Positions 9,831-12,383 of a stretch of 64,000 nucleotides of DNA are shown piece after piece (positions within the stretch are counted from its first letter, which is position 1; the number at the start of each line of letters is the position of its first letter). Below the pieces are notes generated by a model. It worked only from the letters and a program-made list of their open reading frames with translations. It did no database searches and was not told where the DNA came from. The stretch spans positions 201,066,001-201,130,000 of the forward strand of contig OZ024743.1 in assembly GCA_964016885.1 (NCBI GenBank). Reading direction: 5' to 3'. Made by a program: the position numbers and the translations under genes. Source of the stretch: Eledone cirrhosa. Taxonomy: Eukaryota.

Positions 9831-12383
9831 TGTACGTGTACATACTTATATTTAAGTAACAGCCGTACTAAGAGTGGGAAATGAAATATCGTTTCATTTT
9901 TTCCGTTTATCGTTTTCGGTGCACCCGGCCGATTAACCCACTCGATATGCATATTGGGCTACTCAGCCGTTAATATGCATAAGGTAAGTATATACGTTCA
10001 ACAATCTGGCAGGAAGGTATACGTTGCTGACGATAGCTAACAAGCTTGAAACTAGTACAGCGTTCCTTTGTCAGTGTTGAACAAACGAGCAACGGTGGTT
10101 GCTAGACACTACGGCTTAATACGGGATGTTTGTTTACAAACACACCGAGCATTATAATAAATGTTCGGTGAATCCATACGTGCATATATATATGTGTGCA
10201 TGTATGTATATATATATATACATACTACTGTACGTCGGTATACATATATGTATGTACGTGTACATACTTATATTTAAGTAACAGCCGTACTAAGAGTGGG
10301 AAATGAAATATCGTTTCATTTTTTCCGTTTATCGTTTTCGGTGCACCCGGCCGATTAACCCACTCGATATGCATATTGGGCTACTCAGCCGTTAATATGC
10401 ATAAGGTAAGTATATACGTTCAACAATCTGGCAGGAAGGTATACGTTGCTGACGATAGCTAACAAGCTTGAAACTAGTACAGCGTTCCTTTGTCAGTGTT
10501 GAACAAACGAGCAACGGTGGTTGCTAGACACTACGGCTTAATACGGGATGTTTGTTTACAAACACACCGAGCATTATAATAAATGTTCGGTGAATCCATA
10601 CGTGCATATATATATGTGTGCATGTATGTATATATATATATACATACTACTGTACGTCGGTATACATATATGTATGTACGTGTACATACTTATATTTAAG
10701 TAACAGCCGTACTAAGAGTGGGAAATGAAATATCGTTTCATTTTTTCCGTTTATCGTTTTCGGTGCACCCGGCCGATTAACCCACTCGATATGCATATTG
10801 GGCTACTCAGCCGTTAATATGCATAAGGTAAGTATATACGTTCAACAATCTGGCAGGAAGGTATACGTTGCTGACGATAGCTAACAAGCTTGAAACTAGT
10901 ACAGCGTTCCTTTGTCAGTGTTGAACAAACGAGCAACGGTGGTTGCTAGACACTACGGCTTAATACGGGATGTTTGTTTACAAACACACCGAGCATTATA
11001 ATAAATGTTCGGTGAATCCATACGTGCATATATATATGTGTGCATGTATGTATATATATATATACATACTACTGTACGTCGGTATACATATATGTATGTA
11101 CGTGTACATACTTATATTTAAGTAACAGCCGTACTAAGAGTGGGAAATGAAATATCGTTTCATTTTTTCCGTTTATCGTTTTCGGTGCACCCGGCCGATT
11201 AACCCACTCGATATGCATATTGGGCTACTCAGCCGTTAATATGCATAAGGTAAGTATATACGTTCAACAATCTGGCAGGAAGGTATACGTTGCTGACGAT
11301 AGCTAACAAGCTTGAAACTAGTACAGCGTTCCTTTGTCAGTGTTGAACAAACGAGCAACGGTGGTTGCTAGACACTACGGCTTAATACGGGATGTTTGTT
11401 TACAAACACACCGAGCATTATAATAAATGTTCGGTGAATCCATACGTGCATATATATATGTGTGCATGTATGTATATATATATATACATACTACTGTACG
11501 TCGGTATACATATATGTATGTACGTGTACATACTTATATTTAAGTAACAGCCGTACTAAGAGTGGGAAATGAAATATCGTTTCATTTTTTCCGTTTATCG
11601 TTTTCGGTGCACCCGGCCGATTAACCCACTCGATATGCATATTGGGCTACTCAGCCGTTAATATGCATAAGGTAAGTATATACGTTCAACAATCTGGCAG
11701 GAAGGTATACGTTGCTGACGATAGCTAACAAGCTTGAAACTAGTACAGCGTTCCTTTGTCAGTGTTGAACAAACGAGCAACGGTGGTTGCTAGACACTAC
11801 GGCTTAATACGGGATGTTTGTTTACAAACACACCGAGCATTATAATAAATGTTCGGTGAATCCATACGTGCATATATATATGTGTGCATGTATGTATATA
11901 TATATATACATACTACTGTACGTCGGTATACATATATGTATGTACGTGTACATACTTATATTTAAGTAACAGCCGTACTAAGAGTGGGAAATGAAATATC
12001 GTTTCATTTTTTCCGTTTATCGTTTTCGGTGCACCCGGCCGATTAACCCACTCGATATGCATATTGGGCTACTCAGCCGTTAATATGCATAAGGTAAGTA
12101 TATACGTTCAACAATCTGGCAGGAAGGTATACGTTGCTGACGATAGCTAACAAGCTTGAAACTAGTACAGCGTTCCTTTGTCAGTGTTGAACAAACGAGC
12201 AACGGTGGTTGCTAGACACTACGGCTTAATACGGGATGTTTGTTTACAAACACACCGAGCATTATAATAAATGTTCGGTGAATCCATACGTGCATATATA
12301 TATGTGTGCATGTATGTATATATATATATACATACTACTGTACGTCGGTATACATATATGTATGTACGTGTACATACTTATAT
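9831..12383 (+). repeat. 6 inverted tandem 422-bp hammerhead-containing units (right arm; ribozyme sense on plus)
   Basis: reverse complement of the left unit; ccgttt ends at 9908, 10330 ... 12018; runs into (TA)n after cttatat. Confidence 0.97.
10011..10067 (+). ncRNA. type I hammerhead ribozyme (first of 6 plus-strand copies: 10011, 10433, 10855, 11277, 11699, 12121)
   Basis: CTGACGA at 10027; stem II agct/agct; GAAA; palindromic stem III ACTAGT; predicted GUA cleavage after 10057; stem I acgttg/cagcgt extended by ggaa/ttcc, ctggca/tgtcag and gttcaaca/tgttgaac. Confidence 0.85.

Follow-up and report, generated by a model that had tools for sequence, protein, structure and literature searches.

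The stretch of Eledone cirrhosa DNA considered here (64,000 nucleotides, referred to as the window) contains a two-armed tandem array built from a 422-bp unit. The right arm, at 9831-12386 on the plus strand, comprises 6 identical units with the 3' end at unit position about 24, where it runs into (TA)n; the left arm, at 6442-9824 on the minus strand, is made up of 8 inverted units that end at unit position about 80, again followed by (TA)n, and the arms point away from a junction near 9827. Units of the array are 99-100% identical and about 38% GC, the array lacks any ORF of 150 codons, and each unit carries one hammerhead, 14 copies in all (8 minus, 6 plus). A second two-armed insertion at 55503-56638, diverged (84-85% identical to the array unit) and also flanked by (TA)n, has its ribozyme motifs at 55722-55764 (minus) and 56329-56371 (plus). 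Other long inverted repeats in the window, at 19953-21143, 54000-55094 and 58684-60444, fit 5'-inverted insertions, and many copies are found of a LINE-type element with a reverse transcriptase and a PHD finger (14725-16063, 23108-24727, 48415-49407, 51485-53980 and 57062-61101).

The first plus-strand copy, at 10021-10063, is by its sequence and by alignment among lineages a type I hammerhead with an intact core, a U10.1·U11.1 mismatch at the base of stem II and a palindromic ACUAGU stem III. Proximal stem I pairs acgttg (10021-10026) with cagcgt (10058-10063), the core consists of CUGACGA (10027-10033) and GAAA (10048-10051), and stem II (10034-10047) reads U10.1 at 10034, AGCU-AACA-AGCU and U11.1 at 10047. 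Stem III is C-UA-G, followed by U16.1 and A17 at 10056-10057, and the cut is predicted after A17 of the GUA triplet, at 10057. The palindrome ACUAGU (10051-10056) would provide one pair plus a palindromic tetraloop in the monomer and six pairs in a double hammerhead. Stem I is interrupted by a bulge (5' strand GG-UAU, 3' strand U-CC; 10016-10066) that is kept across the U·U, G-C, 310-bp and A·G lineages and may take part in a tertiary contact, and a long irregular extension of the stem surrounds the ribozyme at 9996-10082. The predicted fold of this larger segment has an energy of -27.9 kcal/mol (z -3.05; 3 of 200 shuffles equally good) and matches the long bulged stem I described in the first-pass annotation, whose variant hammerhead, with its core, stems, U·U and ACUAGU, is indeed found here.

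All core positions of the hammerhead class, C3 U4 G5 A6 N7 G8 A9 / G12 A13 A14 A15.1 / U16.1 H17, are present. The consensus G10.1-C11.1 pair is replaced by U·U; as this is a published, tolerated exception, its absence does not exclude the motif from the class. The N7 of G10.1 helps to bind a metal together with the A9 phosphate, so that a U·U would be expected to shift metal dependence. Stem III would not be stable in the monomer, consisting of A-U plus palindromic CUAG alone, as in the dimer-type subgroup. Stem II is better drawn with four positions, U·U, A-U, G-C and C-G, and a 6-nt loop UAACAA, because this loop is what stays fixed across lineages. A register that treats the U as an insertion at 9.1 and pairs A10.1 with U11.1 was rejected, as it gives only A-U and G·U and then a C·C clash, and fails in the other families. 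The motif is a hammerhead-type RNA and is likely to cut itself.

Comparison among lineages was based on 22 hand-picked rows, comprising 13 U·U and 2 C·A members of this family, 4 rows from a G-C-closed sister, 2 from a 310-bp U·U retrozyme and 1 with A·G. The hammerhead structure pairs 92.2% of cells in these rows, as against at most 45.5% for slid controls, and 9 of the 14 pairs change on both sides among four lineages, with all 3 pairs above the U·U and 5 of the 6 proximal stem I pairs covarying. Only the G-C sister (4 of 22 rows) has a standard pair at 10.1-11.1. While stems I and II are rewritten among lineages, there is hardly any change in the core, the loop UAAYAA or the stem I bulge, a conservation that suggests loop and bulge as candidate contact partners. 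As many as 9 two-sided pairs are reached in 40 of 500 shuffles and the observed count of pair types in 277 of 500, and since the rows are related the covariation score is not a significance test. The change from acgTtg/caGcgt to acgAtg/caTcgt that had been quoted as compensatory is present (U·G to A-U), but it concerns one position in one pair of loci; in the 22-row alignment the same pair, 10024/10060, appears as U·G, A-U, G·U, U-A and C-G. The real covariation signal, as judged from these rows, is the comparison among lineages and not the quoted pair of loci, and it is this comparison that supports the hammerhead fold with covarying stems proposed earlier. That the core and stems II-III vary little was stated correctly, the array and the diverged insertion differing there only in N7 and one loop-2 base.

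Six subfamilies that are 83-97% alike account for 94 of 131 distinct segments, the other 37, in clusters under 3, having been left out. None of the 26 core and stem II-III positions differs between the six, against 35 of 157 flanking positions (Fisher p 0.005), in a test that is biased because the loci were fetched by patterns that fix the core. Contigs from four outside runs, aligned without a core anchor, show differences at 10024, 10060, 10041 (in the loop) and A17, with none listed at 10034 or 10047, in a table that is incomplete because the common N7 change is missing from it. At the level of individual copies the main family includes 265 matches with a non-U at 10.1, 188 variants at 10.2 and 172 matches with a non-U at 11.1, to be set against 25,209 exact ones, and these data show decay, not selection, because U10.1 varies no less than its neighbor 10.2. 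One-step changes to A-U or U-A at 10.1-11.1 are found in scattered copies and form no large subfamily. At 10.2 the commonest variant among 100 matches listed (L061-L090) is A to G, which may reflect transition bias or RNA editing.

The 25,209 matches to the exact core-to-cut pattern in the 3.0-Gb genome compare with 0 for the reversed-pattern control, and therefore the motif is not due to chance. The 422-bp family occupies many dispersed loci, from monomers to multimers. Of 120 distinct arm 3' ends, 95 fall within two narrow intervals, and 85 of these 95 run into (TA)n; with an inverted 5'-truncated arm, two fixed 3' ends and a (TA)n target the insertions have the features by which Penelope-mobilized copies are recognized. 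Folded as a circle, the 422-nt unit is predicted to be 71% paired with stems I and II formed (z -8.1, 60 shuffles). In its unit, its dispersal and its predicted self-pairing it conforms to the metazoan non-LTR retrozymes, at a length slightly above the 170-400 nt reported for these. It could be argued that the ribozyme is dead, that the repeat spreads as a DNA-level satellite and that the U·U is a frozen accident, as the near identity of array units and the lack of visible selection at copy level would suggest. Dispersed two-armed insertions with fixed 3' ends, a core that is invariant across diverged subfamilies and the presence of U·U in families with unrelated stems (see below) all speak against this explanation, which we consider very unlikely.

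The U·U closure extends well beyond the AGCU stem. A U·U pattern with other stem II sequences gives 78,664 matches (control 696; some counted twice) from several families, including UUC/GAA with a stable stem III, a 310-bp CGCG tandem, UGC/GCA, CC/GG and others, so that the earlier suggestion that U·U recurs beyond this motif is borne out in unrelated families of the same genome. The G-C-closed pattern has 15,791 matches (control 1,597), mostly, among 100 matches listed, from the sister retrozyme of 467 bp. With a total of over 100,000 as against 15,791 for G-C, U·U is the commonest closure among the patterns counted, in a ratio that is rough because both patterns require a downstream UA and a short stem II; searches demanding a 10.1-11.1 pair would therefore undercount hammerheads here several-fold.

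The sister retrozyme (about 467 bp; loci L042, L043, L121 and L130-L150) has G10.1-C11.1, the loop UAAYAA, CUAG and the triplet GUU, GUC or GUA. Within the main family a C10.1·A11.1 double-change subgroup (L032, L056 and L059) makes up 11 of the 100 non-U11.1 matches listed, and a C·A closure recurs at the long stem II of the unrelated L078 motif. A lineage with A10.1·G11.1, stem GGG/CCC and palindrome CAUG was seen once (L055:162-192, minus), as 1 of the 9 of mismatch type. The stem III insert is palindromic in each aligned tandem lineage: CUAG, CGCG or CAUG. Sister retrozymes that share a loop and stem III and differ in having U·U, G-C, C·A or A·G form a natural series, well suited to asking how the rate of a hammerhead is tuned for stable circles. 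The window also contains hammerhead families with a long stem II, closed by G-C or A-U, and a palindromic UAUAUA stem III (27994-28043, 29626 and 51337-51385).

Further U·U motifs in the window had been pointed out in the first-pass annotation. Its family C, named without coordinates and taken here as the UUC/GAA family at 20696, 50279 (minus) and 50290, does carry the U...U; a decayed copy lies at 50286-50329 (plus). At 29353-29426 (minus) a different repeat family has U...U around a long stem II. The flanking U's are as described, but U4 is changed to C (CCGAUGA), the motif lies on the minus strand and the register of the family is ambiguous because just two pairs follow the U·U; among 11 fetched sister copies 10 have CUGAUGA and U...U, with weak pairing beside the U·U. 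The plus-strand motif at 43611-43645 likewise has the flanking U's, but it is a 5'-truncated, hammerhead-like copy lacking C3 and the 5' strand of stem I, and 9 of 11 other fetched copies of its family read CAGAAGA (U4 to A) and not CUGANGA. This family (L183-L194; 76 matches, control 0) joins U·U to a long stable stem III. Neither of these two window copies is a complete canonical hammerhead. In the 43611-43645 family the 5' edge of the core has a TTTCAG upstream that resembles a 3' splice site.

Searched against Rfam, the U·U copy gave no hammerhead among 4 matches at E<=10, while the G-C sister, at equal input length, matched HH9 with 31.3 bits (E 1.3e-6), below the 52-bit cut-off, in agreement with the earlier expectation that standard searches miss the U·U variant. 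The bulge layout of stem I is that of the Rfam HH9 consensus, as aligned to the G-C sister. A scan of the whole window listed no hammerhead among 150 of 342 matches. Upstream of the ribozyme, several subfamilies and the G-C sister carry the octamer ATGCAAAT at a distance of 88-100 bases from the core; the corresponding regions of the window are at about 9936-9946 and 56247-56254, and the window's array has ATGCATAT. An snRNA-type promoter, prompted by ATGCAAAT, was considered and rejected, there being no likeness to host U2 upstream DNA in 12 alignments (p 0.16-0.96), and the exact octamer is absent from 5 U2 upstream regions.

A link to Penelope-like elements is seen at locus L151, where a relative of the UUC/GAA U·U family stands directly before a Penelope-like ORF with RWR and DKT marks; for the Hydra clade the marks are given as RWK and DKT by Craig et al. 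2021 (PMC8557442). An inverted 5' copy, a tail and a preference for (TA)n have been described for Penelope-like elements, and the two-armed insertions match these features. No unit sequence shared with Penelope was found in 13 stretches at Penelope ORF ends (best 22 nt, E 0.015), a comparison that sets aside one adjacent insertion of the 422-bp unit itself. The Penelope family that adjoins the retrozyme in 6 loci was rejected as its partner, as the 3' region is without a hammerhead and little sequence is shared; the adjacency is explained by shared (TA)n targeting. One Penelope element that has been studied does not need its hammerhead to insert in vitro, and this hammerhead requires the protein in order to cut (PMC11167929). 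Li et al. 2026 argue that animal retrozymes derive from Penelope elements.

These connections bear on the possibility that the motif is a folded handle or a protein-assisted ribozyme, kept for binding or refolding by a Penelope protein and with little activity alone. Penelope hammerheads are described as cutting poorly in vitro (PMC4209133), that of Anolis cuts only with its protein (PMC11167929), and U·U is common both in Hydra-clade Penelope hammerheads and in the Penelope-linked family of this genome. The loop and bulge layout, however, is that of canonical retrozyme hammerheads and not of the minimal Penelope ones, and the axolotl U·U motif cuts protein-free (PMC7229834), so that we hold this role to be quite improbable.

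We favor, as the likely reading, a type I hammerhead that occurs once per non-coding 422-base retrozyme unit, that would be slow as a monomer and is predicted to cut mainly as a double hammerhead in multi-unit RNA, with circularized units being copied into (TA)n. By analogy with HHR_Amex2 and the newt-type hammerheads, the U·U would be a tolerated mismatch, stacked under A9·G12, at the cost of a weaker stem II; docking of the loop UAAYAA on the stem I bulge would offset this weakness, and cleavage would follow GUA (10057). The ACUAGU palindromes of neighboring units may then pair, again by analogy, so that stem III is completed and stem I is exchanged between the units, and dimer cleavage is the expected route. 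Cuts at successive GUA sites would release a 422-nt unit RNA; this would then be circularized and reinserted as a copy at (TA)n sites, with Penelope-like enzymes as the probable agents, and a weakly active monomer would mostly spare the circle once formed. The ACUAGU/ACUAGU duplex is worth -4.8 kcal/mol. For a two-unit RNA the strand-swapped double hammerhead lies 1.4 kcal/mol above two open singles and 4.2 above the free minimum, and its probability in the unconstrained ensemble is about 0 in a model that ignores core and loop contacts.

It could also be that the monomer cuts well, as in coral retrozymes, with contacts between loop 2 and stem I compensating for the U·U as well as for the short stem III. 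In keeping with such contacts, the lineages share an unchanged loop UAAYAA and stem I bulge, and monomer cleavage of a coral retrozyme proceeds at about 0.8 per min. Yet stem III, with its A-U and palindromic tetraloop, is built as in Amex1 (6% in 1 h), stem II carries the same U·U as Amex2 (22% in 1 h; both from PMC7229834), and the stem III insert is palindromic in every aligned tandem lineage; we think an efficient monomer improbable.

A stronger version of the favored double-hammerhead reading has the U·U as a selected brake that, together with the one-pair palindromic stem III, would create an obligate two-unit switch cutting multimers and sparing the circle, and that would explain the U·U majority in the retrozymes and Penelope elements of this genome. 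We regard selection for a brake as doubtful; were it true, the G-C sister with the same loops and stem III would serve as a natural control.

The systems compared below are taken from extracts of the papers cited. The proposal that U·U is lineage-specific does not stand, as it is stated for the axolotl HHR_Amex2, is a natural variant in Perreault et al. 2011 (PMC3088659) and is present in published Penelope-like element rows of other animals (Hydra, sea cucumber, copepod and Drosophila willistoni). A literature search on octopus hammerhead ribozymes found no retrozyme paper, and one on U10.1 or a U-U stem II mismatch returned Perreault 2011 alone, missing the differently worded axolotl statement, so that absence from it is weak evidence. 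In Perreault 2011 a natural U10.1-U11.1 is a rare variant, U-U supports the most cleavage of all mispairs there and the filter rejected 10.1-11.1 mispairs unless activity had been measured; here no other closure is as common among the patterns counted.

For HHR_Amex2, Cervera and de la Pena 2020 (PMC7229834) give about 60,000 motifs, carried by a retrozyme of 350 bp. Like the present motif, HHR_Amex2 is a type I hammerhead whose helix II has a U·U mismatch at its base; it too occurs in tens of thousands of copies and in short tandem repeats, with a second family of normal helix II alongside. In its retrozyme Rtz353, 22% is cut in 1 h as a monomer and much more as a dimer, and circular RNA is found in tissues (PMC7229834). 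It differs in that helix III has two pairs and a tetraloop, and in that the unit here is 422 bp, the insertions are two-armed and inverted and activity is predicted. The one pair and palindromic tetraloop found here are instead those of axolotl HHR_Amex1 and the newt satellite hammerheads, whose conserved loop contacts and dimer-dependent cleavage (PMC7229834) would have their predicted counterparts in the present motif. In the extracts of that paper the U·U is named for Amex2 only, whereas here both weak features occur in one motif.

Among Hydra-clade Penelope hammerheads, a U follows CUGANGA and another precedes GAA in 14 of 26 rows of a table that carries no comment on U·U (PMC8557442, File S2). 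The U...U and the (TA)n targets are shared with the families described here, family C standing before an ORF with RWR and DKT; unlike the present motif, the Hydra-clade ones lie in pseudo-LTRs, lack the loop-bulge layout and combine a short stem I with a stable stem III. U·U is found in 2 of 56 rows of Cervera and de la Pena 2014 (PMC4209133), from Hydra and D. willistoni. The latter, Dwi_HHR2, is represented by 440 sequences and occurs both in Penelope elements and in tandem arrays of up to 85 repeats, each of 450 bp. It resembles our motif in its U...U at the base of helix II, a position inferred from the row layout because the extracted text separates the GAAA column from its rows, and in its palindromic helix III (Figs S3, S5). 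It differs in its longer helix II with a tetraloop.

The U·U closure is real and already known, from axolotl repeats and from cnidarian and fly transposons, and the surprise is small because the variant itself is known. The motif is real and well conserved, and is probably active. Within the extracts compared, no motif joins U·U to a one-pair palindromic stem III and no genome has U·U as its majority closure with a G-C sister alongside. What is different here is the combination of U·U with the weakest stem III, together with a natural G-C sister.
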